A stretch of DNA of 64,000 bases from Candidatus Saccharimonadota bacterium (lineage in GTDB: Bacteria; Patescibacteriota; Saccharimonadia; Saccharimonadales; CAIOMD01). The notes below the pieces were generated by a model. The model was not told where the DNA came from and did not search any database. It was given only the letters and a program-made list of their open reading frames with translations. The stretch lies in assembly GCA_031973215.1 (NCBI GenBank), contig DALYDK010000004.1, positions 12,019 through 76,018 of the forward strand. The letters run 5' to 3'. Below, piece after piece: positions 2,709-63,019 of this stretch (positions within the stretch are counted from its first letter, which is position 1; each line of letters opens with the position of its first letter). The position numbers were made by a program, and so were the translations under genes.

Positions 2709-3300
2709 TAGACAGCAAGGCTTTACAATTACTGAACTCATTATGGTTCTAGCGACTGCAGCTATTTTAGTAACTGCTTTAATCGGGTTTTTTAACGGAA
2801 ATATCAATCAATATTTTAGACTCCAGGCTGATGGCCTTGCCTATAGTGAAATTACCCAAAATACACAAAGAGTTGCAAAAGTAATTAGAGGCCTAAAGTA
2901 TATAGAGGTTGCTGAACAAGATAGAATTGTTGGATACTCATATTTTGCGCCATCAGAGCAATACACATCTAAAATAACTTATGAACTAGTTAATGGAAAT
3001 ACAAAAATGCAAGCAACAGTTATTCCTATGACTGCAGACTACCCTTTGGGTACGCTAATTACCGGGCAGACTCGAACAGTAACAATTATTAACAATTTTT
3101 ATAAAATAACTGGCGTAAACACCTTTGAATATCTAGACGCTTCCGGAAACACTATGGCTTTCCCAATTGATTCAGCAAATATAAATTCAATAAAAAGCGT
3201 TCGGATCAAACTCAATGTTAAAGGCTACCAAACAAATTCAAATAATGTTATTAGTAATGAAGTTGTAGTGAACCTAAGAAACAGAAAGACTAATTTATGA
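2695..3300 (+). CDS. minor pilin-like protein (prepilin N-terminal domain)
   Basis: QQGFTITELIMVLATAAILV motif. The track starts at GTG 2644 inside the upstream gene. GTG 2695, 5 nt after AAGGGGG, gives a typical 8-aa leader; the start is uncertain (2644/2689/2692/2695). Confidence 0.65.
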   Translation: MYRSNRQQGFTITELIMVLATAAILVTALIGFFNGNINQYFRLQADGLAYSEITQNTQRVAKVIRGLKYIEVAEQDRIVGYSYFAPSEQYTSKITYELVNGNTKMQATVIPMTADYPLGTLITGQTRTVTIINNFYKITGVNTFEYLDASGNTMAFPIDSANINSIKSVRIKLNVKGYQTNSNNVISNEVVVNLRNRKTNL

Positions 3301-4883
3301 GAATGAAGCATCAAATACAAGATGGATTTATTATTGCTTGGGTTATTTCATTAATGCTAGCACTGGCATTCGTTATTACGGCTGCTCTGAGTGTTATATA
3401 TCTTAACCTTGGTAATGCTGTCCGAAATAATCAAAGCCAGTTAGCATTCAACATCGCTGACGCTGGCATAAACTACTACCTTTGGCACCTAAACCATGAC
3501 TCGGCCGACTTTAAAGACGGCAACACATCAGCAACTGTAATATCTAGTGGTAAATACAGTGGCTATTACGGTCCTTTTGAACATAATTATAAAGATGATA
3601 ACGGCAATGTTGTTGGCAAATATATCTTATACGTCAAACCAAAAACTGCTGGCTCAACAATCGGAGAAATTATTTCAATAGGTAAAACAAGTGACGGCAA
3701 AGCTACTAGAACTGTCCAAGCAGATCTAGGGGCTCCATCATTTGCAACGTATGGACTTGCTACAGCCGGTATGACTTGGTTTGGAGCTAATGAATCGGCT
3801 GACGGAAAAATACACTCTAATGTTGGTATAAGAATGGATGGTGCGAGTAACTCAGATGTAACTAGCGCCCGCTCAACATATGTACCTTCTTCGTCCCTGG
3901 GTGGAAATGGCTCTACAAGCAGACCAGGAGTGTGGTGTAGCACTAGCGTCACCACGCCAGTAAATTGCAATACTCGTTCAAAAACAGACTGGCGATACCC
4001 TGTGCCAACAATTGATTTTGCAGCCATTGTCGGAGATAGATGTGAACTCAAAAAAACTGCATTTATGGCCGACGCCAGCACTCAGGCATATGCTAGCGGC
4101 ACCACTCCTTGCTCTAATGTCCCAAACGTTAGAACTGCATCATATATCCCAAGATATAATTCATCAGGTGCATTTAGTGCAACTACAGGCTATTTAATAG
4201 AACTAAATAACAACAATACTTATAATTTATCTAGGGTTACAAATGAAACTTACACCTATAGTAGCGCTACTAACTATACAAATCCGTATACATCTGCATT
4301 ATCTAGAACCAGTGTTGCAACAAATATTCCCATTCCCGCAGAAGGTGTCATATTTGTAGAAGATAACCTGTGGGTTAGAAGCAATACTCAATTTAGAGGA
4401 AGAGTAACCATTGTTGCAGCCAGGCAAGCCGATTCAAACACGGCTAATATTATCGCAGCTGATGATATTGAATATTCGACAAAAAATGGACAGGATGTAT
4501 TAGGGCTAATTGCCGAGGGTAGCTTCTTAATTGCACCATATGCACCTCCCAAGCCAGATGCGGCAACCAGTAATTTTCCATTTAAAATACATGCAGCAAT
4601 AATCGCCGGAGGAGATGTTAGGTTTCCGTCTAGCTATATGACAAGAAGCGTTACCGAATGGACAACTAGCACAAGGCGCATGGAATATTTTGGGTCAATA
4701 GGCATGACTAACGAAAGCGGAGTATGGACTTGGTCTACAAGCTCTGGAAGTTCTACAGTAGCTGGGTTCCAGTACAACACAACAAGCTATGACTATAACC
4801 TGCTGTACGCCCCACCCCCACACTTCCCAATAACCGATACCTACAACATACTCAATTGGCGCGAAAAACTAACTACACCATAA
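3297..4883 (+). CDS. large pilus-associated protein with PilX-N-like hydrophobic N-terminus
   Basis: N-terminus QDGFIIAWVISLMLALAFVITAAL followed by a 500-aa Ser/Thr/Asn-rich extracellular region. 4-nt overlap with the upstream pilin-like gene. Confidence 0.55.
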   Translation: MRMKHQIQDGFIIAWVISLMLALAFVITAALSVIYLNLGNAVRNNQSQLAFNIADAGINYYLWHLNHDSADFKDGNTSATVISSGKYSGYYGPFEHNYKDDNGNVVGKYILYVKPKTAGSTIGEIISIGKTSDGKATRTVQADLGAPSFATYGLATAGMTWFGANESADGKIHSNVGIRMDGASNSDVTSARSTYVPSSSLGGNGSTSRPGVWCSTSVTTPVNCNTRSKTDWRYPVPTIDFAAIVGDRCELKKTAFMADASTQAYASGTTPCSNVPNVRTASYIPRYNSSGAFSATTGYLIELNNNNTYNLSRVTNETYTYSSATNYTNPYTSALSRTSVATNIPIPAEGVIFVEDNLWVRSNTQFRGRVTIVAARQADSNTANIIAADDIEYSTKNGQDVLGLIAEGSFLIAPYAPPKPDAATSNFPFKIHAAIIAGGDVRFPSSYMTRSVTEWTTSTRRMEYFGSIGMTNESGVWTWSTSSGSSTVAGFQYNTTSYDYNLLYAPPPHFPITDTYNILNWREKLTTP

Positions 4884-29369: not shown

Positions 29370-30755
29370 ATGGGTGGAAAAAATAAAAAACCAATTTCAT
29401 TTGACTATGACTTAGTTGTCATTGGGGCCGGTACCGCAGGGAGTGTAGCTGCAAACCTGGCTGCAAATCATGCTAAAAAAGTAGCCATTATAGAAAGTAA
29501 TAAAATCGGAGGAGAGCAACTCTGGTCAACTACTATACCTACTAAATGGCTTATGGAATCATTAAAATTTTATCAAAAAGCTAAAAAAGCCAATTCTCAA
29601 GGCTTAGATATAAGCGTTTCGCCGATTAGTATAGACAAAATAAAACATTATTTAAGAAAAACTCAAAACAAAGCATCTGGGGCAGAAACAAATGTATTTA
29701 AAGATGAAAACATAAAAACATACAATGGTAACGCAGATTTCATAGACAAATACCATATTAGTATTAATGGTAAAAAAATATCATCAAAATACTTTCTGAT
29801 TGCCCCAGGGGCTTCTCCAGACAATTCTATTGCCAAAAAGTTTAATGTAACCAATTTTCTTACATATAGAGACCTAGCTGAGCTTAATTTCAGTGGCAAT
29901 AGTTTTTGTTTTATAGGAGCCGGGTCAGTCGCGTATGAATATTCGCAAATACTTACAATGCTAGGATTTAACGTGCATGTAATAGAAAAAAATAATCATA
30001 TATTGCCCAAGTCCGATAACGAAGTAAGCGATATATCTGAAGATATCCTAATTAAACATTCAGTTAAACTACACACTGCTAGTTTTGTCGAAGATATTAA
30101 ACAAAGCAACAGTAAATCAATTATTCATTTTATTAAAAACCAAAGAAGGTACCGTTTGGCTGTAGATAACTTAGTGTTGGCATCCGGTAAAATGCCTAAT
30201 GTAAAAAACTTAGGCCTAGAAAATGCTAATGTTCATTTTGACGAAAAAGGAATTAAAACTAATAGGAAAATGCAAACATCACAAAAAAACATATTTGCGG
30301 CAGGTGATGTCGTAGGTTCCGAGTCGGGATACGAAGCAATATATGATGCACAAATTGCAGTTCATAATATGTATTTTAGAAAAAAACTAAAAAAATCTAG
30401 AAAAGCTATTCCGAAAGTTGTTTATGGCTCTACAGAAATTGCAACCGTTGGTGTTAGCGAATTGCAGCTAAAACTATCGGGTAAAGTATACCAATCCTCC
30501 ATAGCGCCCGCTGGTATAACAGCAAGATCTCTTTACGGTCAATATGAACTTGGATTTGTAAAAATACTTGCTAACCACAAAGGCATAGTTGTTGGCGCAA
30601 GTGTAGTTGGAGAAAACGCTACAGAGCTTATTAATATATTGTCAGTTGCAATTAACAACAATATGCAAGCTTGCGACTTAGCAAAAACCGTTTATTCAAG
30701 TCCTAGCTGGTCAGAATCTATCAAAATCGCAGCAAGCAAAATTTATTGCTTATAA
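29370..30755 (+). CDS. FAD/NAD(P)-binding pyridine nucleotide-disulfide oxidoreductase homologue lacking the redox-active cysteines
   Basis: DLVVIGAGTAGS, FIGAGSVAYEY and AAGDV dinucleotide motifs. The GGxCxxxGCxPSK site reads GGEQLWSTTIPTK. The C-terminal HPxxSE reads SPSWSE. Start taken at ATG 29370 (the track uses TTG 29340). Confidence 0.8.
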   Translation: MGGKNKKPISFDYDLVVIGAGTAGSVAANLAANHAKKVAIIESNKIGGEQLWSTTIPTKWLMESLKFYQKAKKANSQGLDISVSPISIDKIKHYLRKTQNKASGAETNVFKDENIKTYNGNADFIDKYHISINGKKISSKYFLIAPGASPDNSIAKKFNVTNFLTYRDLAELNFSGNSFCFIGAGSVAYEYSQILTMLGFNVHVIEKNNHILPKSDNEVSDISEDILIKHSVKLHTASFVEDIKQSNSKSIIHFIKNQRRYRLAVDNLVLASGKMPNVKNLGLENANVHFDEKGIKTNRKMQTSQKNIFAAGDVVGSESGYEAIYDAQIAVHNMYFRKKLKKSRKAIPKVVYGSTEIATVGVSELQLKLSGKVYQSSIAPAGITARSLYGQYELGFVKILANHKGIVVGASVVGENATELINILSVAINNNMQACDLAKTVYSSPSWSESIKIAASKIYCL

Positions 30756-30777
30756 AAAACTGCCATGAATATGGCAG
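30754..30777 (-). terminator. rho-independent terminator (copy 1 of a duplicated hairpin)
   Basis: CTGCCAT-GAAT-ATGGCAG; on the minus strand it is followed by TTTTTT. Overlaps the stop codon of the plus-strand oxidoreductase gene. Confidence 0.65.
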
Positions 30778-30791
30778 TTTAATTGTGCATC

Positions 30792-47149: not shown

Positions 47150-48826
47150 ATGCACGGTAATGTTTTCACCGAAATAAGCCTAATTATAGCTATTGGAGCA
47201 GCTATCTCGTTGGTGATGCGCCTAATTAAGCAGCCATTAATAATTGGATATATTATTACCGGCCTGCTTGTGGGACCATCATTTCTAAATCTAATAAAAA
47301 ATAGTGAAACTATAGATGTTTTTGCGAGCATAGGCGTAGCGTTACTGCTATTCATAGTCGGACTGGGGCTTAATCCAAAAGTTATTAAAGAAATTGGTAA
47401 AGTTGCTGGCATCACTGCATTTGCTCAAATTGCTATAACAAGTATATTCGGATATATATTTGGTCAGTTTGTTGGATTTACCAAGACAGAAAGTCTGCTT
47501 CTTGGCCTTGCCCTTAGTTTTAGTAGCACAATTATTGTTCTAAAACTGTTAAGTGATAAAAAAGAACTAACTAGACTTAACGGGAAAATTGCGATCGGTA
47601 TACTGCTTATTGAAGATATTATTGCAACTTTATCATTGATATTCATTTCTGCCAGAGCAGATGGAACATTTTCTGTAAACGCATTGTTATTCTTAGCGGT
47701 TAAAGGAATTTTGCTACTAGCCATATTAATTTTAATAAGTAATTTATTGCTCCAAAAAATGAATAATTTCATAGCCAGCAATCAAGAGCTATTATTCTTG
47801 TTTGCAATAGGCTGGGGTTTTGGCGTGGCTTCTATATTTTTACAAATTGGCTTTTCAATAGAAATTGGAGCACTATTTGCAGGAATATCACTATCTGCCC
47901 TTCCATACGCCCAAGAAGTATCATCTAGACTACGACCGCTTAGAGATTTCTTTATTATTCTGTTCTTTATTTCGCTTGGCAGTGGCCTATCCCTAGCGAG
48001 CGCAGGTGAAAATGTTTTACTAGCAATTATTCTTTCTGTTTTAGTTCTAATTGGTAAGCCTTTAGTTTTTATGATTGTCATGGGCTTAAATGGCTATACG
48101 AAATCTACTAGTTTTAAGGTGTCGAACTACTTATCTCAAATTAGTGAATTCTCGTTGATAATTCTGGTTCTAGGCTTTCAAAATGGTCTTATTAGAGAAT
48201 CGATAATTTCTTTAGTTACAATGGTTGCTCTAATTACTATCGCAGTCTCTACTTACACAATTACTTACAATAATCAAATATATGCATTCTTAGAAAAAAG
48301 ATTATCTCTTTTTGAAAGACGAATAACAAAGAAAGATGAAAAAAGAGCAATTAATTACGATATGATTCTTTTTGGTTATAAAAAGGGTGGTCAAGAGTTT
48401 ATACGAACAATGAAATCAATAAACAAAAAATTCATCGTGGTAGATTACGACCCCGACGTCATTGATACATTAGAACAGCAAAACATTCCATATGCATACG
48501 GTGACGTTTCAGACCCAGAGCTACTAGAAGAACTTAACTTAGGACACGCTAAATCGATTGTTTCGACAATTACAGATTTTAATACCAATGACTTTTTAGC
48601 AAAATGGGTAGATAAAGTTAATCCTTCGGCCGTTTTTATTTGCACTGCTGATTCTGCTCAAGAAGCTTCCGATTTATATCAAAGTGGGGCAGATTATGTA
48701 ATGTTACCCCATTTTGTTGGTAGTGAAAAAATGAGCTCATTTATCAGAAAAAATGGTTTTAGCAAATCTGAATTTTACAAATTCAGAGAAAAGCATCTGC
48801 AATATCTAGAAACACATTATTCTTAA
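47150..48826 (+). CDS. CPA2 (Kef-type) cation:proton antiporter with C-terminal RCK/TrkA-N domain
   Basis: PLIIGYIITGLLVGPS N-terminus, 12-13 TM helices, C-terminal Rossmann domain (MILFGYKKGG). Confidence 0.85.
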   Translation: MHGNVFTEISLIIAIGAAISLVMRLIKQPLIIGYIITGLLVGPSFLNLIKNSETIDVFASIGVALLLFIVGLGLNPKVIKEIGKVAGITAFAQIAITSIFGYIFGQFVGFTKTESLLLGLALSFSSTIIVLKLLSDKKELTRLNGKIAIGILLIEDIIATLSLIFISARADGTFSVNALLFLAVKGILLLAILILISNLLLQKMNNFIASNQELLFLFAIGWGFGVASIFLQIGFSIEIGALFAGISLSALPYAQEVSSRLRPLRDFFIILFFISLGSGLSLASAGENVLLAIILSVLVLIGKPLVFMIVMGLNGYTKSTSFKVSNYLSQISEFSLIILVLGFQNGLIRESIISLVTMVALITIAVSTYTITYNNQIYAFLEKRLSLFERRITKKDEKRAINYDMILFGYKKGGQEFIRTMKSINKKFIVVDYDPDVIDTLEQQNIPYAYGDVSDPELLEELNLGHAKSIVSTITDFNTNDFLAKWVDKVNPSAVFICTADSAQEASDLYQSGADYVMLPHFVGSEKMSSFIRKNGFSKSEFYKFREKHLQYLETHYS

Positions 48827-50052
48827 TTTTTTGCAGTTCTAAATAAGTCTTCTAAGATTTTTTCTACAATTTTTGTAAAGCTATTTTTAGGGTTATTATG
48901 ACGCGTCACCTTGTTATTGCTCGTATTAACCTCTACGCGACATTCAGGGCATGCAATAGAGCTTCTTTTAACAATGGCATCTACTGTTTTTTTACAAAAT
49001 GGACATGTTACGCATTTCATGCCATCGTTAGTTCTTGTAATGGTTTTAAGCAAAGATTCTTCGGATGTAGATAAGTAACCTCCACATGAGATAAATTCAA
49101 GACCTTCCGCACTGGCTCTTTCTGATGCCAATGAAACCTCTGACTCTATCGAAAGTGTTTTGGCGCCCTTGTTTTCGTACCTGTAAATCAATGCACTGGC
49201 AACCATTTTTGTTAATTGAACTTTTTGACTTAGCCTTTCTGAATAATTGGAATTAGACAGGGCAATTGATTGTAAATTACTCATATTATAATCAAGCAGG
49301 TCTTTTTGATTTTTTACAAACACATAGGTTTCCAGGTTGCTATAATCAGTTCTACCTTGACGATGCCGCATATTTGTTTTTGCACTCAGCAAAGTGTCAT
49401 ATTCGCATATTAAAGTATCTAAATCATTAGCACCACAATGAAACCTTAGACCAAGTAAATCCTTAGAGTCGGAAATTGTCTCTCCTGTAATTTTAGACCA
49501 TAAATCTAAGTCGGAATTATCAACAGAAGCGGTGGCGAGTATTACGGAGTCATTGTGTTTAGTGTATTGACGAATAAATGCCAAACGGCGGTGGCTATTA
49601 AAACCTTCCTGGTTCACAAAATCCTTGCCATACTTAAGCTCAAGTTCTTCAGGATAGGCAGATATTACCAAAAAACCATCACCATTCTTGCCAGATCTGG
49701 CTAACTCTTCAACCGCAAGACCTTCTTGATACTCTGCTTCTCTAATTGCAACTAAATCTTTCTGTCGAACATCAAATTTGGCCTTATTTTTAGTAAGCTC
49801 ATAAGAATTTTGCCATAAATCTAGTAAGCTCGATCCACCCTTACTGACCAAGCCTGAATCTGTAGATTTAAATTCGAACTCTGTGCGAATAGGCCCATCA
49901 ATTATTTCCGCAAATCTAGTTGCCTCTTCGTCTGCTACCTGTTCCAGTAAATTGCTTTCGCCACTCTTGGCAAATTCTTCGAGCATATTTATGCTCGACA
50001 TCTCAGGATCGTATCTGAAGTGACTTTTATTGTTTGCTGTTAAGCTATTCAC
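48823..50052 (-). CDS. hypothetical protein with C-terminal CxxC...CxxC zinc ribbon
   Basis: 409-aa ORF with a GTG start in the track. CVTCPFCKK...CPECRV near the C-terminus. No recognisable family. Confidence 0.5.
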   Translation of the reverse strand: MNSLTANNKSHFRYDPEMSSINMLEEFAKSGESNLLEQVADEEATRFAEIIDGPIRTEFEFKSTDSGLVSKGGSSLLDLWQNSYELTKNKAKFDVRQKDLVAIREAEYQEGLAVEELARSGKNGDGFLVISAYPEELELKYGKDFVNQEGFNSHRRLAFIRQYTKHNDSVILATASVDNSDLDLWSKITGETISDSKDLLGLRFHCGANDLDTLICEYDTLLSAKTNMRHRQGRTDYSNLETYVFVKNQKDLLDYNMSNLQSIALSNSNYSERLSQKVQLTKMVASALIYRYENKGAKTLSIESEVSLASERASAEGLEFISCGGYLSTSEESLLKTITRTNDGMKCVTCPFCKKTVDAIVKRSSIACPECRVEVNTSNNKVTRHNNPKNSFTKIVEKILEDLFRTAKN

Positions 50053-50954: not shown

Positions 50955-51698
50955 CTAAGGTGCTGGTGAGTTTGGCACAACTACAACAAAAGTTGCTCCA
51001 CTGGGCATAGTCTCGCCCTGAGGCAAACTACCAACAGTATATCCCAGAAGCTCAGCTGTTTTCTTGGCGGCTTCTGGCTCTTTTCCGGTAACATCGACAA
51101 CTATTCCTGATGTAATAGCTGTTTGTGGGTTCGTTTTGCTAACAACAACAGCATTGTTAATTTTTTGCTTAATAGCCTGTTCTGCAGCTTCGGTTTTATC
51201 AGCCGGAGCAATGACTGCTATGTTTACAGTGCCAGCTAATATTTTTGAATACTGATCAGAAGAAATTATTTTTTTCTCAGATGGCCTGTACAAAACAACA
51301 GTGTCAGCTTTTTCATATGCAATTAAAACATCGTTAAGTTTTGCTTCTTTCAAAAACTTAGTATCTTTTTTTAATTGTTCTAGTGATTTTTCATCTTTAA
51401 AAACAACAAATTTTGTCGGTTTTTCTTCATCATAACTAGGTATTTTATAAAGCGCCGACACTTCAGTAACAGTCTTCTTAGTTCTTTCTTCTTCCGTCAT
51501 TGTTAGTTCTGTGTATTTATCATCTAATTGTTGATATTTAACAAAATAAAAGCCGCCAAAAATTAATGCAATTAATAGTATTGCCGTATAAATATATGGA
51601 GTTTTTTTCTTGCGCCTTTTTGGCCTTGGTGAATGCGTCACGTCTTTTGAAGTTGTTTGCGGAGCTGATTCTTTTGCTTTAGGTTTTTCGTCTTTCAT
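50955..51698 (-). CDS. membrane-anchored protein with LytR_C-like C-terminal domain
   Basis: TM helix; C-terminal VVDVTGKEPEAAKKTAELLGYTVGSLP resembles LytR_C. Confidence 0.5.
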   Translation of the reverse strand: MKDEKPKAKESAPQTTSKDVTHSPRPKRRKKKTPYIYTAILLIALIFGGFYFVKYQQLDDKYTELTMTEEERTKKTVTEVSALYKIPSYDEEKPTKFVVFKDEKSLEQLKKDTKFLKEAKLNDVLIAYEKADTVVLYRPSEKKIISSDQYSKILAGTVNIAVIAPADKTEAAEQAIKQKINNAVVVSKTNPQTAITSGIVVDVTGKEPEAAKKTAELLGYTVGSLPQGETMPSGATFVVVVPNSPAP

Positions 51699-57202: not shown

Positions 57203-57238
57203 TTGAGGATTATTTATCCTTATTAATAACTATTATCA

Positions 57239-57256
57239 TGGCTCGGGAGACAGGAT
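57239..57256 (-). repeat. 18-nt copy of the tRNA-Asn 3' end (positions 59-76)
   Basis: ATCCTGTCTCCCGAGCCA versus tRNA-Asn ATCCAGTCTCCCGAGCCA (62945-62962): 17/18, same orientation, 5.7 kb away. Confidence 0.85.
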
Positions 57257-57384
57257 GCCTTTGGTGCGCTTCAAGCTTACTCGAAACAAGTTTCTGCGTG
57301 AGCTTGCCTGGCGCCCGAACCGCGAGGCTATGGTATTTTCTTTCAGAAAATCCCAATCGCTGTTTAGAATTCAACCCCAGAAAT
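57257..57384 (-). repeat. G+C-rich structured tRNA-trailing unit, copy B (body)
   Basis: 57280-57300 is 18/21 identical to 30839-30859 of copy A. GGCGCCCGAACC (57310-57321) is the reverse complement of 31756-31767 in copy C, so it has the same sense relative to the tRNA. AU-rich hairpin AUUUUCU-GAA-AGAAAAU. Confidence 0.7.
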
Positions 57385-57417
57385 GAAAAAACCGCCGGCA
57401 AATGCCGACGGATTTTT
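57385..57417. terminator. terminator hairpin following the tRNA 3' fragment
   Basis: CCGCCGGCA / TGCCGACGG hairpin (one mismatch) flanked by an A-run and a T-run. On the minus strand it is followed by TTTTTT. Confidence 0.65.
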
Positions 57418-57419
57418 CA

Positions 57420-57444
57420 TGGCTCCCGCAACCAGATTCGAACC
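57420..57444 (-). pseudogene. tRNA 3' fragment (T loop to CCA) of a tRNA-Asn-like gene
   Basis: GGTTCGAATCTGGTTGCGGGAGCCA is 19/25 identical to the tRNA-Asn 3' end, with discriminator G and A72 as in tRNA-Asn. No matching 5' half lies upstream. Confidence 0.65.
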
Positions 57445-57523
57445 AAGTGTCTCTATCACCTAATTTTTGGCTCACTTCATACTAGCTTACATCTGTTATT
57501 TATCGTAATTATTATTCGAATTT

Positions 57524-57775
57524 CTAAGAAATACCAAGTACAAGATCTACTTTTTTTCTATCAAAACCTAGTATCTTTTCTTCAGAACCATCTTCTGTTT
57601 CGATAATTGTAAAAGGAACGCCCAGCTGACCACTTTTTTCAAAAAGTTCTTGAGCTACCGATTGATCTATATCTGCATGTTTCTCTTCGTACGCAATATC
57701 TTTGCTTTGTAGATAACTCTTAAGCATTTTGCAGTATGCGCACGTCGCTGTGCTGTAAATTGTAATCTTTGACAT
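57524..57775 (-). CDS. NrdH/glutaredoxin-like small redoxin
   Basis: ITIYSTATCAYCKMLK CxxC motif and GVPFT. Confidence 0.8.
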   Translation of the reverse strand: MSKITIYSTATCAYCKMLKSYLQSKDIAYEEKHADIDQSVAQELFEKSGQLGVPFTIIETEDGSEEKILGFDRKKVDLVLGIS

Positions 57776-57777
57776 AA

Positions 57778-58284
57778 CTACTCCTTATTATTAGGTTCCA
57801 AATAACTACTAAACGACCGTATATAATGACATGTATAACCTCCCGGGTTTTCTTGCAAGTAATCTTGGTGGTAGGGTTCTGCTGGCCAGAATTTTGTAAA
57901 TGGCTCAAGAGTTGTAACAACCGGATTAGCCCAATTCCCCGAATCATTCACTAGCTTAATCATTGCTTCCGCATCTTTGCGCTCTGATTCGTCCTGGTAG
58001 AATATGGCTGATCGATATGCAGAACCCACATCGTTACCCTGCCTATCGAGCGTAGTTGGGTCATGGACTCGAAAAAAATAATCTAGTAATTTCTTGTACG
58101 ATGTTTTTGTGTCGTCGTATGTAATCTCAAGTCCTTCAGCGTGACCTGGATGATTACGATAATCAGGATTATCGTTAGAGCCACCCGTGTAGCCTACCTC
58201 AGTATCAATTACGCCCATTTGTTCTCGAACAAGGTCTTCGAGACCCCAAAAGCAACCACCAGCAAAATATGCTTTTTTAATCAT
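57778..58284 (-). CDS. msrA: peptide-methionine (S)-S-oxide reductase MsrA
   Basis: [10 protein letters not shown] active site. Start taken at ATG 58284 (8-nt overlap with msrB); the track's 5' extension is unlikely. Confidence 0.9.
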
Positions 58285-58660
58285 TATTGCCAACTTTCTT
58301 TGTATCAAAATCAAGAGATAGCGAGTTAATACAGTAGCGCATACCTGTCGTATCAGTAGGACCGTCATTGAATATGTGGCCTAAGTGACCACCGCAAGCA
58401 GCACATACCGCTTCTACCCGTACCATCCCGTGTGAGCTATCGGTAACTTCTTTAACGGCACCAGGTAACGCATCGTCAAAACTAGGCCAACCCGAACCTG
58501 AATCAAACTTTGTATCAGACGAAAAGAGTTGTGCATGACAGTTTGCGCAATTGTACATACCCGACTCTTTGTTATTTAGATACTTACCTGTAAATGGTGC
58601 CTCAGTAGCTTTATTGTGAAGTACGGCTTTTTGTTCATTTGTTAAATGGTCATTTTCCAT
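58277..58660 (-). CDS. msrB: peptide-methionine (R)-S-oxide reductase MsrB
   Basis: Two CxxC zinc motifs and RYCINS catalytic motif. Confidence 0.9.
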
Positions 58661-58683
58661 GCTGCTTTGCTCCTTCTTTAAGT

Positions 58684-60402
58684 TTAACTACCAAATGTAA
58701 ATGCGTTAACCGTAACGCCTGTCGGGAATGTTAAAGTTAACTTTTTACCAGTCATGTACTTATCTAAATTCACAATTTTATATAAACGAGCGCCATTAAT
58801 GCTAACTTGATTTTTCGAATTAACATCAGCCCCACCAGGAGAGCTTTGACCGTCAACTGACACTCCAACTAGCGCTCCTGGAGGCCCACTCATTACAAGA
58901 TAAACTTCTTTTCCTGAAAAGTTAAAACTAAGTTTTGATTCGTTAGAAAGACTTTGGCTAGACTCATCATTAATTTGCCATTGCCCACCTAGTGACCACT
59001 CATTCGCCTTTAATGTATTGGCTAATGTGTAACTGGCGGGTTGATTGGCTACGAATTGGTCTGTGTTGGCAAAGCGTTCGGCGCGTTCGTAGCCTAAATA
59101 TGTTTCCGGGGTTTGTCCGCGAGCGCTTGAGTTTATGCTACGGTCAACTTCAATCTTATTCGTTACTGTCTGTCCAGATTCTTTAAGTAATGCCTGAATG
59201 GTTTCTTCAGTTTCTGTATAATCACCCTCGCCAAAATGCGTGTACCTAACCTGACCATCTTTATCTATCAAATACTTTGCTGGCCAGAATCGATTTTCAT
59301 AGGCTTGCCATGTAGCGAAATCGTTGTCTAGGGCTACAGGATACTTAATATTTGCGTCTTTAACTGCATCTTGTACATTCTTTGTAACTTTTTCAAATCC
59401 AAATTCTGGGGCATGAACACCAATTATTACTAGCCCGTCATTATTGTATTTATCGTACCAAGCATTTAAATATGGTTGCGTACGCTGGCAGTTAATACAA
59501 GAATATGTCCAAAAATCTACTAAGACGACTTTCCCTTTCAGACTTTCAATTGTTTGTGGGTCGCTGTTAATCCAAGCGGCAATGTTCTTAAGCTCAGGTG
59601 CATCATATGCTGTGACATTAAACTTTTGCTTGTTGACTGAACTATTGCTATTAGATTTGGGAGAGTTATTGTTTTCTGGAACCAGCTTTTCTTCCAGTAG
59701 CTTTATACTCAAAAAGTCTTTTTCAACCAGGTATGTTTGCACTTTTTTGTCCAAACCAGTTGCGACAAAAATACCAACAATGATGAATAGAATAGCTATA
59801 ATTCTTTGAAACCATCCTTTTGGATCGCTGGCCCATTTTATTCGTGCGAGTAGTCTACGACCAAGTAAAGCAATAGCTAATAATGCAGTGGCAACACCGA
59901 GTACGTAGAAAGTTAGATAAAACATTCCCAGTAATGCGCTTGAGGGCAGTACTGTAGCTATAACCCAAGCATAGGTTGGACTACAGCTACTAAAAATTGG
60001 CCCAAGTGCGGCACCAATTAGAATTGCCGATATCACGCCATTCTCTTGCTTGTAGGCTTTGCCGAGTAGGCCTTGCGATCTATGCTCGATACCGAGCTTA
60101 CCAATTACTTGCGCCCATAGGTCCGGGAACAACATAAAGAATCCAAGAATTATTACTAGAACGCCCGAGCCAATAGCCCAAACTCTTGGATCAATTCCAA
60201 TGAGTGCCGTCGAGGCTTTCAGCAGGATTGTAAAGAGTATTAAGGAGATGACCAAGCTAGCAGTAATTATGTAGGGCCGCCATTTATCCTTTTTATCTCC
60301 AGCCAAACTACCACCAAGGATAATTGGCAGTAGCGGAAGTACGCACGGGGCTAGTGCAGTTAGTAGCCCCGCGACGTATGATAGGAATGCTGTAAGCAGC
60401 AT
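58684..60402 (-). CDS. DipZ-like fusion: CcdA/DsbD transmembrane electron-transfer domain plus thioredoxin-like (TlpA/ResA-type) domain plus C-terminal beta-sandwich
   Basis: [10 protein letters not shown] CcdA motif, 6-8 TM helices, then [16 protein letters not shown] redoxin motif. Confidence 0.85.
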
Positions 60403-60409
60403 ATGGCTA

Positions 60410-60958
60410 CTATGACTTTATGCCAGCAACGGCTTTATCTAATGATGTTGCAGACCATTGTGCTGTTTCGTTGCCACTATTATCTACTTGAACAAATGTG
60501 TACTGAGTTGTGACACCGTATTTTTGGCGTAAGTCAGTTGAGCTATCAAAATCTGTTTTAATAAGCGTTACGCCTGCTGGAATTTTAGACATATCGGCAT
60601 TTATTTCTTTATCGATACCTTGGCATATTGGGCACCAGCTTGCATGGAAGAAGTATACCTTCTTTGAATCAGCATATTTGCTCGGGTCTTTATTATAGTC
60701 AGCAAGTGTTACGTATGAACCTTGCTTGGCCATAGCGTCTTCTTTCGTCATGGCGTCACCTTCTTTTGCCATCTTGTCCTTTTCCATGGCTGCTGCTTCG
60801 TCTTTTTTCATCATAGCTTCGTCGGTAGCCTTTTTCTCCATGGCCATCTTTTCTTGCTCTTTTTTATCGTTCTGATTATTGCTGTAGGCCAATGCACCAC
60901 CACCGACTAAAAATAGTCCGACGACTATGCTTACGATTACTAATGCTTTTTTGTTCAT
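60410..60958 (-). CDS. signal-anchored thioredoxin-like protein with Met/Lys/Glu/Ala-rich linker
   Basis: FFHASWCPICQ CxxC motif. ATG 60958 is preceded by GAGGG; the track begins at GTG 60970. Confidence 0.75.
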   Translation of the reverse strand: MNKKALVIVSIVVGLFLVGGGALAYSNNQNDKKEQEKMAMEKKATDEAMMKKDEAAAMEKDKMAKEGDAMTKEDAMAKQGSYVTLADYNKDPSKYADSKKVYFFHASWCPICQGIDKEINADMSKIPAGVTLIKTDFDSSTDLRQKYGVTTQYTFVQVDNSGNETAQWSATSLDKAVAGIKS

Positions 60959-61037
60959 GATTACCCTCACTTACGTTTTATTGTTGATCTAAGTATAATT
61001 AAGCGATACACACAATGTCAAGTTGACTTAACAATTA

Positions 61038-61403
61038 CTATTTACCATCTTTGGTTCGCTGGACGTTAATTTTTGTAGCTATCATTGCCAGAAGTGCTAT
61101 GGGAATTGCAGGATCTAGATTGTGATGAAGGCTTTGAACTATAAGTGCGGTAATAAGTACAAGCGAGCCAACAGTATATGCGGAACGACTTGCTAAAGCT
61201 TGGTTCTGCATTTCTCGTTCATCGTCGGGTTGTTCACGCCAAAACAGAACTAAGAATGTCGCAATAAGACCGAGTACAGCTGCGAGGATTAACATCTGCA
61301 CGCTAGTGGGCATAACGAAGGTTTTTGGGGCAACAGCCAACAATGCAATGATAGCTAAGCCAAGAAGCAGGATGACATCAAGTAATTGTTTATATTTTTT
61401 CAT
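61038..61403 (-). CDS. hypothetical 4-TM membrane protein
   Basis: 14-nt overlap with the upstream HTH gene. Confidence 0.5.
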   Translation of the reverse strand: MKKYKQLLDVILLLGLAIIALLAVAPKTFVMPTSVQMLILAAVLGLIATFLVLFWREQPDDEREMQNQALASRSAYTVGSLVLITALIVQSLHHNLDPAIPIALLAMIATKINVQRTKDGK

Positions 61404-61614
61404 ATTGAAAGATCTCCTCCACCTTCTTGTCTAGTATAGCGGCAATCCTTAGCGCAAGCAGTACACTCGGTACATAGTTACCTTTTTCTATAGCGATTAT
61501 TGTTTGACGTGTGGCTTGTACTTTGTCGGCGAGATCATCTTGGGTCATCTTTAAAGAAGTACGTGCCTCGCGTACAGTATTCACCACCGTGTGTTCTTTA
61601 TCTCGTATAAACAA
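61390..61614 (-). CDS. XRE family helix-turn-helix transcriptional regulator
   Basis: LKMTQDDLADKVQATRQTIIAIEKGNYVPS HTH_3 pattern. The exact start is uncertain (TTG 61614 or GTG downstream). Confidence 0.8.
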   Translation of the reverse strand: MFIRDKEHTVVNTVREARTSLKMTQDDLADKVQATRQTIIAIEKGNYVPSVLLALRIAAILDKKVEEIFQYEKI

Positions 61615-61723
61615 CTATTCTCTCCTAGATGTATAGTTAACCATACATATAGTAACACGCCATCAGGGAAAGCAGCATAAATAGCCACCAAATGGTGGCT
61701 ATTTATGCGGGTTCGATCAATTA

Positions 61724-62014
61724 CTACATCTTAGCTAGTTCGTAAACGACGACGCTGGTAATCATAGGGTTGGTCTTAGCTAGTGCAATCGCTTCTTCTT
61801 TGCTCTCAGCACTAATGATGGAATAGCCAGTTAAGGCGTCCATTCCCATTTCAAGTGCCGTAACATCAGTCTTTGAGACTTCGCTACCATCACTGAATGG
61901 ATTGCCTCCGTCGATCATTTTGTCACCGACTTCTTCGAACCATTTCATCCAAGCCTGACCAATTTCTGGCGTTGGTTGCATAAAACCTTTGTATAAAAAT
62001 ATGAACTTCTTCAT
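61724..62014 (-). CDS. YCII/DGPF-like small protein
   Basis: 96-aa alpha+beta protein (FIFLY...GY.II.A.S.EEA..LAK..P); weak family call. Confidence 0.5.
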   Translation of the reverse strand: MKKFIFLYKGFMQPTPEIGQAWMKWFEEVGDKMIDGGNPFSDGSEVSKTDVTALEMGMDALTGYSIISAESKEEAIALAKTNPMITSVVVYELAKM

Positions 62015-62382
62015 TTCTTCGATCCCTTCTTTAGTTTATTCTCGCCCTTCTGAATACTGGCGACGTAGTTCTCCAGTTTTTCTTGATTGTTCCCCCAATA
62101 AGCATGATATTGAGTTATCCAATTTTGCATCAACAATAGTGCTGTTCTGTCTAGTGCTAGGAAGTTGGTTTTGCCAACTTTCTTGCGCAGGACTAAACTT
62201 GCTTGCTCGAGCACTCTGATGTGCCTATGTATAGCTGGCAAAGACAACTTTTGTTGATCTGCTAACTGAGCAATAGATGCTGGGTGTAAGCCAAGTGTAT
62301 ACATAATTTCTCGCCTGTGTTTGTTGGCGAGGGCGGTAAACACTTGGTCTAGTGACTCGGTATCATTAATCTTAGTTAACAT
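62011..62382 (-). CDS. ArsR family transcriptional regulator
   Basis: ALANKHRREIMYTL...SIAQLA....SLPAIHRHIRVLE winged-helix pattern. Confidence 0.8.
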   Translation of the reverse strand: MLTKINDTESLDQVFTALANKHRREIMYTLGLHPASIAQLADQQKLSLPAIHRHIRVLEQASLVLRKKVGKTNFLALDRTALLLMQNWITQYHAYWGNNQEKLENYVASIQKGENKLKKGSKK

Positions 62383-62427
62383 TAATGTTAAGTGTACTCT
62401 ATTTATAGTGAACTGTATAATCTAAAT

Positions 62428-62724
62428 ATGGAGATCAATTTCAAGAGCAAACTATGGGAATGGTCGGGCAAAGGTGCGTGGTGTTTCGTTTCCTTACCGA
62501 AAGAATACTATGACGAAATCAAGGTAATAAGTAGCTCGCCAAAGAGGGGTTTTGGATCTGTAAAAATTGAAGCGAGTGTTGGAAAAACAGTATGGAAAAC
62601 ATCGATATTTCCAGACACAAAATCAGGTACTTACTTGCTCCCAGTTAAGAAAGAGATTAGAAAAGCTGAAAATCTTAGTATTGGGAGTGTCATAGATATG
62701 AAAGTAAGATTGATCGATTATTAA
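62428..62724 (+). CDS. DUF1905 domain protein
   Basis: W.F..LPKE......GFGSVKI.A.VG...W.TS.FP pattern. ATG 62428 lies 6 nt after TATAAT (62416-62421), suggesting a leaderless mRNA; the track starts at GTG 62392. Confidence 0.7.
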   Translation: MEINFKSKLWEWSGKGAWCFVSLPKEYYDEIKVISSSPKRGFGSVKIEASVGKTVWKTSIFPDTKSGTYLLPVKKEIRKAENLSIGSVIDMKVRLIDY

Positions 62725-62731
62725 TAGCGAC

Positions 62732-62750
62732 AGGTCTAGGGAACAGGTCT
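62732..62750. repeat. AGGTCT-N7-AGGTCT site, copy 1
   Basis: AGGTCTAGGGAACAGGTCT; its partner lies 174 bp away. Confidence 0.6.
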
Positions 62751-62796
62751 GATTTTGGAGTGCTTGCTCCTTCAGGACGGGAGGGGCTGGGTTAGA

Positions 62797-62875
62797 ACTA
62801 ATTTACAGGGGTAAAATGAAAGAACCGCCATTTCTGACGGTTCCAACATTTGTAACTTACGAACTGTAAATTAGT
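62797..62875. other. 12-bp inverted repeat enclosing a hairpin
   Basis: ACTAATTTACAG (62797-62808) and CTGTAAATTAGT (62864-62875) enclose GAACCG/CGGTTC (62822-62843). On the minus strand the inner hairpin plus GGCGGTTCTTTCATTT resembles the terminator of copy B. Confidence 0.55.
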
Positions 62876-62905
62876 ATTTCTCTGACCAAAGAGAGAAGTT
62901 ATTGT

Positions 62906-62924
62906 AGGTCTAGGAACTAGGTCT
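62906..62924. repeat. AGGTCT-N7-AGGTCT site, copy 2
   Basis: AGGTCTAGGAACTAGGTCT, 20 nt from the tRNA-Asn 3' end. Confidence 0.6.
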
Positions 62925-62944
62925 ACGTTTTTCTCTGCTTGGTC

Positions 62945-63019
62945 TGGCTCGGGAGACTGGATTCGAACCAGCGACCTAGTGGTTAACAGCCACCCGCTCT
63001 ACCGCTGAGCTACTCCCGA
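62945..63019 (-). tRNA. tRNA-Asn (anticodon GTT), CCA encoded
   Basis: Hand-folded, 75 nt: TCGGGAG/CTCCCGA acceptor, GGTGG-CTGTTAA-CCACT anticodon arm, GCTGG-TTCGAAT-CCAGT T arm, discriminator G. Confidence 0.9.

Follow-up and report, generated by a model that had tools for sequence, protein, structure and literature searches.

A tRNA-tagged unit separated from its tRNA-Asn gene by a mobile redox island in a Saccharimonadota bacterium

The 64,000-nt stretch of DNA analysed here (contig DALYDK010000004.1, positions 12,019 to 76,018 of the forward strand; assembly GCA_031973215.1, Candidatus Saccharimonadota bacterium; hereafter the window) carries, at 57236-57444, two pieces of tRNA-Asn-like 3′ sequence on either side of a terminator and a short G+C-rich body, on the same strand as an intact tRNA-Asn gene. 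How did two such pieces come to lie there, and what is the sequence between them? Comparison with related loci shows that a mobile island has split tRNA-Asn from its native terminator and from a unit ending in an 18-nt copy of the tRNA 3′ end, and units of this kind recur behind tRNA genes of many isotypes. The explanation that best accounts for all of this combines the locus history, integration of the island, the unit family and a view of the unit as a mini-cassette, and we consider it reasonably probable as a whole. What a preliminary description had observed at this locus was confirmed; its interpretation proved partly right.

The tRNA-Asn locus and its history

Coordinates at this locus, which holds copy B of the unit (57236-57444), are given on the minus strand, in the sense of the tRNA. 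The first piece, GGTTCGAATCTGGTTGCGGGAGCCA at 57444-57420, shares 19/25 positions with the stretch from the T-loop to CCA in the intact gene, the only tRNA-Asn of the window, and a degenerate T-loop-to-CCA pattern matches only these two places in the window (0.01 expected). As had been proposed, the fragment has no 5′ half: neither ARAGORN, which finds five tRNAs in the window, nor Rfam, even at E ≤ 10, recognises a tRNA or a 5′ half in 57420-57520, and the acceptor strand of the fragment cannot pair with the 5′ strand of the resident tRNA-Asn. By the same two programs it is not part of a non-canonical tRNA. It is followed by an intrinsic terminator, a hairpin with an A-tract and a T-tract (TGAAAAATCCGTCGGCATTTGCCGGCGGTTTTTTCA; 57419-57384; terminator scan), then by a G+C-rich body of 127 nt (57383-57257; previously counted as 128) and by the 18-mer ATCCTGTCTCCCGAGCCA at 57256-57239, 3 nt away from 57253-57236, where it had been placed. 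This 18-mer, referred to below as S′b, is a copy of tRNA-Asn positions 59-76 with 17/18 identity, and 0/100 shuffles match so well. The nine-base repeat TCATGGCTC is duplicated as reported, at 57236-57244 and 57417-57425, and is GAGCCA followed by TGA, occurring at both CCA junctions; it is weakly unusual, being reached by 2/100 shuffles. Two predicted open reading frames (ORFs; 57210-57401 and 57238-57606), suspected to be spurious, have no Pfam match at E ≤ 1, and the sequence under both is wholly different 3′ of the fragment in related contigs, which bears out the suspicion.

Two other units in the window (copies A and C, described below) lie directly behind their tRNA genes, which suggested that copy B had been split from tRNA-Asn by an island. 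The exact deacetylase protein encoded beyond copy B is carried solely by island-bearing contigs and offers no empty site; a relative without the island (L268; the loci and contigs compared carry L numbers) was reached through an 86%-identical deacetylase homologue. There, TGAAAAATCCGTCGGCATTTATCGGCGGTTTTTTCA comes straight after an identical tRNA-Asn; the terminator is the same, and behind it stands a unit that we estimate from the alignment to be ~90% identical to copy B and whose tag, ATCCAGTCTCCCGAG, is exact to the tRNA. Intact tRNA-Asn followed by TGAAAAAT... terminator and unit was also found in L169, L251 and L173. The arrangement in L268, together with the constant left and right junctions of the island, shows that the island displaced the unit, and that the terminator at 57384-57419 is the original trailer of tRNA-Asn.

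Insertion thus accounts for the layout, as first supposed, and the distal 18-mer does belong to the resident tRNA-Asn, since it is reproduced exactly at the orthologous locus in L268, a comparison that the preliminary description had set as a test. The model built on these points, in which the unit lies between two independent, decayed tRNA-Asn remnants and its body is junk, did not survive. It is true that tRNA-Asn-like 3′ pieces lie on both sides of the body and that insertions took place, but in L268 body and 18-mer are the normal 3′ neighbour of an intact tRNA-Asn, the fragment moves together with the island, and the body shows conservation and covariation and recurs behind many tRNAs; we regard this model as scarcely tenable.

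The island (57445-62944, minus strand; 5.5 kb) begins at the CCA of the intact tRNA-Asn (GTT; 62945-63019, minus strand; ARAGORN, Rfam tRNA 70.9 bits), the left junction being placed by alignment. Its genes encode DUF1905, an ArsR-like helix-turn-helix (HTH) protein, HTH_3, DUF2178, thioredoxin, a DsbD/CcdA-thioredoxin fusion, MsrB, MsrA and glutaredoxin; precomputed Pfam assignments for all island genes include no integrase. The same gene set recurs in contigs encoding an identical glutaredoxin, always with its left end immediately 3′ of a tRNA-Asn CCA. Three different tRNA-Asn alleles are involved (acceptor strands TCGGGAG, TCCGGCG and TCCCGGG, paired in each case with the 3′ strand of the same tRNA), whereas the right end is the same 25-mer (one G/T variant) in 10 contigs, adjacent alleles notwithstanding. 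Beyond the right-end CCA, exactly where the sequences diverge, the contexts all differ: the unit and deacetylase gene, other genes, a second related island, or an element opening with a large serine recombinase gene. Because the fragment (57420-57444) is constant while host alleles vary, it travels with the island and is an attachment (att) arm of a mobile element, not the leftover of a tRNA once resident here. Its proposed origin from another tRNA-Asn allele holds only in so far as it may descend from a foreign one; it is island-borne and no relic of the resident tRNA. The L005-type 3′ end CCGGGAGCCA is 9/10 identical to the GCGGGAGCCA of the fragment.

Proteins of this oxidative-stress island are 100% identical across at least three host backgrounds (L001-L010). 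Its left ~250 bp contain a long hairpin and three CTAGACCT repeats, and in L005 a second island with a homologous left end comes after the first.

ORFs of at least 150 aa from 92 unit-bearing loci were clustered for recurrent neighbours, and large serine recombinases (LSRs) were the only recurrent mobile-element protein (7/92 loci). All five LSRs tested by Pfam have the Resolvase domain, three of them Recombinase and one the Zn ribbon. LSR genes converge on or overlap tRNA 3′ ends in L218 and L243 (tRNA-Glu) and L252 (tRNA-Gly), and abut or overlap the Asn-like fragment itself in L003 and L006. The last ~10-20 LSR codons are antisense of the tRNA 3′ end (L218:1234-2809, L243:3019-4621, L252:1979-3610, L003:6294-6356), so that the ORF reads across the att junction and the C-terminus would change upon excision. 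L218 is a complete parallel to the window: tRNA-Glu is followed by an LSR element of 5.6 kb whose end reads ...CTCTTGGCTCACCA, and then by a terminator and a Glu-type unit that has an exact tag.

The distance between the T-loop-like GTTC and the CCA end is 24 nt in real tRNAs but 29 nt in eight island arms. This +5-bp shift would fit the half-sites of serine integrases, in which the outer recognition motif lies ~5 bp further out from the centre in attP than in attB. This spacing, and the presence of LSRs at the same junctions, lead us to read the island arm as a serine-integrase-type att site: 57420-57444 would be the element-side arm of attR, with crossover in the last bases (GAGCCA), and an LSR acting in trans is the most likely enzyme. 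The fragment in the window argues against this in one respect, its GTTC spacing being tRNA-like (24-25 nt), without the +5 of the other arms. In addition, tRNA 3′ ends are not known as typical targets of LSRs. In outline, tRNA-Asn was originally followed by its terminator and a ~200-bp unit ending in the 18-nt copy of positions 59-76; the 5.5-kb recombinase-less redox island subsequently integrated exactly between the tRNA CCA and the terminator, and brought along its own tRNA-Asn-like 25-nt right end.

The same order (tRNA, cassette ending in NCCA, terminator and unit) is seen in L152, L223, L186, L206, L218 and L243 and, by eye, in ~20 more loci. All inspected units that do not lie directly behind a tRNA are preceded by NCCA and a terminator, the NCCA closing an inserted element (by eye). 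Some insertions are single-gene cassettes of 0.6-0.9 kb exactly at the tRNA CCA, encoding a methyltransferase-like protein by sequence (L152:4890-5715), a small unknown protein (L223:396-1036) or a membrane protein (L186:477-1371; all in oriented sequences). Each of these cassettes closes with a tRNA-3′-like arm, an integron-like array grammar.

A family of units behind tRNA genes

The core hairpin of the unit, CGCAGAARYTTNNTTCGAGYA, searched for as an exact pattern in JGI metagenomes, occurs at 118 loci at least. Among the matches listed, a GGTTCG-like motif lies 5′ of the hairpin in 83 distinct cores. The upstream tRNA, where present, is mostly ~90-120 nt before the core hairpin and belongs to one of at least 17 isotypes (Glu, Leu, Met, Ala, Asp, Arg, Ser, Pro, Asn, Lys, Phe, Val, Gln, Trp, Cys, Thr and Gly). 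The last 17 nt of this tRNA recur ~40-65 nt after the hairpin, with at most one mismatch in 34 distinct units among the matches listed. Counted back from its 3′ end, the repeat spans 18 nt in 16 of these 34 units, 19 nt in nine, 17 nt in three, 16 nt in two and 20-21 nt in four; the length of 18-19 nt in 25/34 means that the copy starts at tRNA position 58/59. By eye, units often have T at position 58, against A in the tRNA. In 3/34 units the trailer behind CCA occurs twice; otherwise the terminators before and after the unit differ.

From 5′ to 3′, the consensus begins with the tRNA, a long A-tract/T-tract terminator hairpin and TGG(T) followed by a decayed reverse complement of the 3′ third of the tRNA (including CGAACC). 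An apical hairpin then precedes a sense stub with GGTTCG at its end; after the stub come the core hairpin, a hairpin of variable sequence, G(C/A)T and the 18-nt tag. In copy B, the degenerate antisense arm (57357-57383) is recognisable by eye as the decayed reverse complement of two parts of tRNA-Asn, the acceptor 3′ strand and the T-arm. The apical hairpin GGGATTTTC-TGAAA-GAAAATACC (57331-57356; minimum free energy fold) has equivalents in other units, and the sense-arm stub with its T-loop-like GGTTCG and the subfamily motif GGCGCCA that follows (57309-57330) are common to copy A and L141. The conserved core hairpin contains CGCAGAAACTTGTTTCGAG (57298-57280) within a covarying helix and is followed by a linker (together 57257-57308), and S′b (57239-57256) completes the unit. 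A covariance model of the core (R1) scores copy B at 53 bits and copy C at 56 bits.

Several of these parts would be expected of a tRNA gene duplicated locally and left to decay, with neither function nor mobility: units contain copies of the variable region, the T-stem and the 3′ end in sense orientation, some of them (L133, L147) keep an acceptor-like 5′ strand, and the antisense arms decay. Such an origin is nevertheless very unlikely, given that one non-tRNA core hairpin is common to units of at least 17 isotypes in many genomes, that S′b stays exact while other parts decay, that the D-arm and anticodon arm are missing, and that neither ARAGORN nor Rfam finds a tRNA in the units.

Copy C (30792-30964, minus strand; repeat family D20) comprises a terminator, the unit and an exact 18-mer (30809-30792), and follows tRNA-Met (31040-30965); a second, near-identical copy of its terminator lies 3′ of it (30752-30791, minus strand). 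Copy A (31662-31834, plus strand) has a terminator, a diverged unit missed by model R1 and the 18-mer GTCCTGCCCCGCATACCA (31817-31834; 14/18 ungapped), and follows an initiator-like tRNA-Met (31587-31661). The two copies thus stand behind divergently oriented tRNA-Met(CAT) genes (30752-31040, minus strand, and 31587-31834, plus strand). The initiator-like tRNA-Met has a U1.G72 end pair and just two G-C pairs adjoining the anticodon loop, features that presumably set it apart from the E. coli initiator.

The core helix is strongly supported as a conserved structure. In 82 cores examined with RNAalifold and pair counts, 92.2% of cells pair (77.4% in shuffles), double-change cells number 144 against 40, a value reached by 0/500 shuffles, and the covariation score is 0.426 against 0.146 in shuffles and at most 0.096 in slid controls. 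G.U/U.G outnumber A.C/C.A by 12 to 2 in the four cleanly aligned variable pairs (27 to 14 over all six), and the excess identifies the tRNA-sense strand as the folding strand. The duplex of 5′ antisense arm and 3′ tag is weak (mean z -0.88 versus shuffles; z<-2 in 6/32), so a tRNA-like or attC-like fold is not supported. C(GNA)G triloop hairpins are ~10-fold enriched in 32 units (17 versus 1.6 expected; e.g. window 57331-57356, L227:1140-1152), in the forms GCGAAGC, GCGTAGC and GCGCAGC, with TAGCGA-like motifs recurring beside them. C(GNA)G triloops of the GCGAAGC type are familiar chiefly from hyperstable DNA mini-hairpins, and their enrichment is a hint of single-stranded DNA folding.

Several identities were considered for this structure and set aside. 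A tRNA-like fold or a foldable attC/attP-like palindrome would require more than arm pairing barely beyond shuffles, and no IntI was seen. An RNA of the antisense strand with a 5′ seed resembling a primer-binding site (PBS) conflicts with the G.U bias, which marks the tRNA-sense strand, and copy C leaves no room for its promoter. A self-cleaving ribozyme or k-turn core has no Rfam match, and the hammerhead core misfits by hand check. Permuted transfer-messenger RNA (tmRNA), split tRNA and permuted tRNA are negative by ARAGORN and Rfam and have no complementary 5′ strand; no standard or permuted tmRNA was found by ARAGORN in the window or the loci, or by Rfam.

Copies A and B and a canonical unit in L227 have no Rfam 15 match at gathering score, with chance hits only at E up to 5-10. 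The core hairpin has 0 exact matches in IMG/VR, and the unit has no blastn match among INPHARED phages and PLSDB plasmids; with all three negative, a phage or plasmid origin was rejected. The invariant GGTTCGGGCGCCA, scanned as CNNGGTTCGGGCGCCA in genome contigs, was dropped as a search key, its only matches being chance ones in G+C-rich genomes. No description of such an element was found in the literature searched, and the family, in Saccharibacteria-like bacteria, is apparently undescribed.

The CGCAGAAG-CUUG-CUUCGAG hairpin also occurs in other conserved non-coding contexts (L154/L177/L263; L210/L256/L259; L212/L214; L168/L262), which lack a tRNA tag and are unmatched in Rfam; further RNAs may use it as a recurring module for protein binding or structure. 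Elsewhere in the window, gene content by Pfam includes the type IV pilus protein PilM and ComEC, in keeping with a Saccharibacteria-like organism, and ORFs of 528, 409 and 247 aa (3297-4883, plus strand; 48823-50052 and 50955-51698, minus strand) have no Pfam family at E ≤ 1e-5.

Mobile cassette, RNA or retrocopy?

Units come and go between relatives. Behind tRNA-Met(C) the window has one unit, L133 has two, and L134, L138 and L141 have none; the unit behind the initiator-like tRNA-Met is found in most relatives, with quite different bodies, and is absent in L145 and L148, so that subfamilies turn over at one locus. Tandem units occur in L133, L166, L183 and L227. In L269 and L268 islands begin right after or inside S′b, as though the tag were a second att site. 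The units in the window contain no promoter-like site.

These features lead us to favour, tentatively and with more doubt than confidence, a reading of the unit as a mini-cassette that is non-autonomous and has tRNA 3′ ends as its anchor points. Its att or homology site would be the 18-nt tag, which would also be a second landing site for islands, the unit would supply a replacement terminator for its tRNA, and the core, folded on the tRNA-sense strand, would be the recognition module for an enzyme acting in trans. A mini-cassette explains the boundaries at CCA, the two different terminators, the missing promoter, presence and absence between relatives, tandem copies and use of the tag by islands.

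A number of observations weigh against it. It leaves unexplained how the tag can be exact to the host allele, constant at 18 nt and fitted to 17 isotypes, all of which point to a templated or RNA-level process, and one enzyme would need to serve all 17. S′b is exact while island arms are ~75% identical, so a simple LSR mechanism with an element-borne arm fails to explain it. Pfam searches of the island genes and of 20 large ORFs in the window revealed no recombinase, reverse transcriptase or TnpB; among the 20 large ORFs Pfam recognised housekeeping genes only, and no partner protein. A unit-like antisense arm was detected in one of five gene cassettes tested (L152, p=0.006). The other four lack it, which sets units apart from islands as a different kind of element, and the idea that gene cassettes share the hairpin and antisense-arm grammar of the unit was abandoned. 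The weak pairing of the arms provides no folded attC/attP-like site, and the covariation, the excess of G.U over A.C and the terminator after many S′b copies (from a reading of the flanks) fit an RNA gene equally well.

As an RNA gene, the unit would be a structured non-coding RNA of tRNA sense, made by read-through of the terminator and trimmed in the manner of a tRNA at its own CCA; its last 18 nt would imitate the cognate tRNA and serve as a tag, as a decoy for factors that bind 3′ ends, or as a 3′ guide. In the guide version, a ~110-130-nt scaffold would be joined to 18 nt that match the tRNA gene just after the TTCRA of the T-loop, a universally conserved motif, like a homing guide of the omega-RNA or CRISPR RNA (crRNA) kind next to a target-adjacent motif (TAM). 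Besides the strong covariation of the core helix and the preference for G.U (12 versus 2), the highly conserved core loop, the exact and fixed-length S′b, the terminators that follow many S′b copies, the TTCRA preceding the target within the tRNA and the retention of the element at many tRNAs in streamlined ~1-Mb genomes all speak for an RNA. A strong terminator and no promoter-like site stand between tRNA and unit, however; no TnpB, IscB, Cas or IS110 is encoded in the window (Pfam, 20 ORFs) or among recurrent neighbours, a nuclease guided to the cell's own essential tRNA gene would be lethal, and variable presence, tandem copies and triloops familiar mainly from DNA mini-hairpins (17 versus 1.6) fit poorly. 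An RNA of this sort is possible but doubtful. Slightly less doubtful is the broader proposal, still a speculative one, that units form, in Saccharibacteria, a class of their own: structured RNA, or single-stranded DNA in folded form, that is matched to tRNAs through a conserved scaffold bearing an exact, templated 18-nt copy of positions 59-76 of the neighbouring tRNA. Together with a protein partner, such a unit could mark tRNA 3′ ends as a programmable guide or tag; it could direct or license integration of cassettes at the CCA junction, or mimic a tRNA end.

The tag could also have been copied from mature tRNA by reverse transcription starting at CCA and stopping or jumping at modified A58, units being retro-copied and integrating through the 18-nt homology. 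Regeneration of retroviral primer-binding sites and tRNA capture by the Mauriceville retroplasmid are parallels. The repeat boundary at 58/59 in all isotypes (mode 18 nt), the CCA always within the tag, the frequent T in place of A at unit position 58 (by eye) and the re-programming to 17 isotypes, which calls for a templated process, are what such copying would leave. Yet positions ~44-57, beyond the supposed stop, are copied in the unit as well, in sense and in antisense, CCA is gene-encoded here and so no proof of an RNA origin, and no reverse transcriptase is encoded in the window (Pfam, 20 ORFs) or among recurrent neighbours. A survey of Patescibacteria that reported group I introns at tRNA position 35/36 did not detect group II introns (PMC13011429), a further point against this origin, which we think improbable.

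The island itself, integrated at a tRNA 3′ end, is fairly ordinary. More broadly, in these ultra-small genomes of the Candidate Phyla Radiation (CPR), tRNA 3′ ends are landing sites for arrays of single-gene cassettes and islands, elements associated with LSRs, an integron-like route of gene gain in organisms thought to be gene-poor. The main result is the unit family, which is abundant, conserved and covarying and carries an exact 18-nt tag of its own tRNA. Were the unit to be expressed, or to move by a templated route, this would represent a new mechanism linking tRNA identity to genome plasticity, and the hypotheses on it are directly testable in cultivable Saccharibacteria.

Comparison with known systems

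In the Islander model, an island restores the 3′ end of the tRNA gene and the displaced piece is host DNA (PMC4383910). As in such tDNA islands, the island described here has an intact tRNA gene at one end and, at the other, a direct repeat of the 3′ part of that gene, and one tRNA can accumulate several islands. In contrast, the tRNA here retains the 3′ end specific to its host and the distal fragment comes with the island in constant form, which places the crossover at the extreme 3′ end and not in the anticodon loop or T-loop; the island has no tyrosine integrase, and serine recombinases are the associated enzymes. The attP/attB systems of LSRs are similar in that LSR genes adjoin and read into such junctions, junctions are exact and arms resemble the target half-site (every context diverges exactly after CCA), but the island in the window has no LSR gene and its arm has tRNA-like spacing; LSR genes lie at the same fragment and at tRNA 3′ ends in the other loci named above.

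Remnants akin to cis-mobilizable elements (CIMEs) or miniature inverted-repeat transposable elements (MITEs) are, like the unit, short and gene-less, lie between direct repeats of the target 3′ end, form tandems and are present or absent between relatives. The unit differs in its conserved covarying core, its antisense copy of the target and its fixed 18-nt tag matched to 17 tRNAs; with such a tag and a structured core, it cannot stem from deletion of one integrase element.

A tRNA 3′ sequence with CCA at the end is also a feature of tmRNA, viral tRNA-like structures (TLS), retroviral 18-nt PBS and the Mauriceville retroplasmid, and the retroviral PBS agrees with the tag of the unit in its 18-nt length and in a boundary next to A58. 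Compared with these, the unit has neither cloverleaf nor acceptor/T minihelix (the arms pair weakly) and is no tmRNA by ARAGORN, its tag is in tRNA sense on the folding strand, and it has no reverse transcriptase.

The homing crRNA of type V-K CRISPR-associated transposons (CAST) matches the adjacent tRNA gene, and TnpB omega-RNA carries a 3′ guide next to a TAM. Units come without Cas12k, TnpB or Tns genes and without transposon ends, and have a terminator upstream and no promoter, so that effector and transposon ends are missing in cis. What they have in common with these RNAs is a scaffold joined to a 16-20-nt match to a segment of the neighbouring tRNA after a short motif, here the 18-19-nt tag after TTCRA in 25/34 units.

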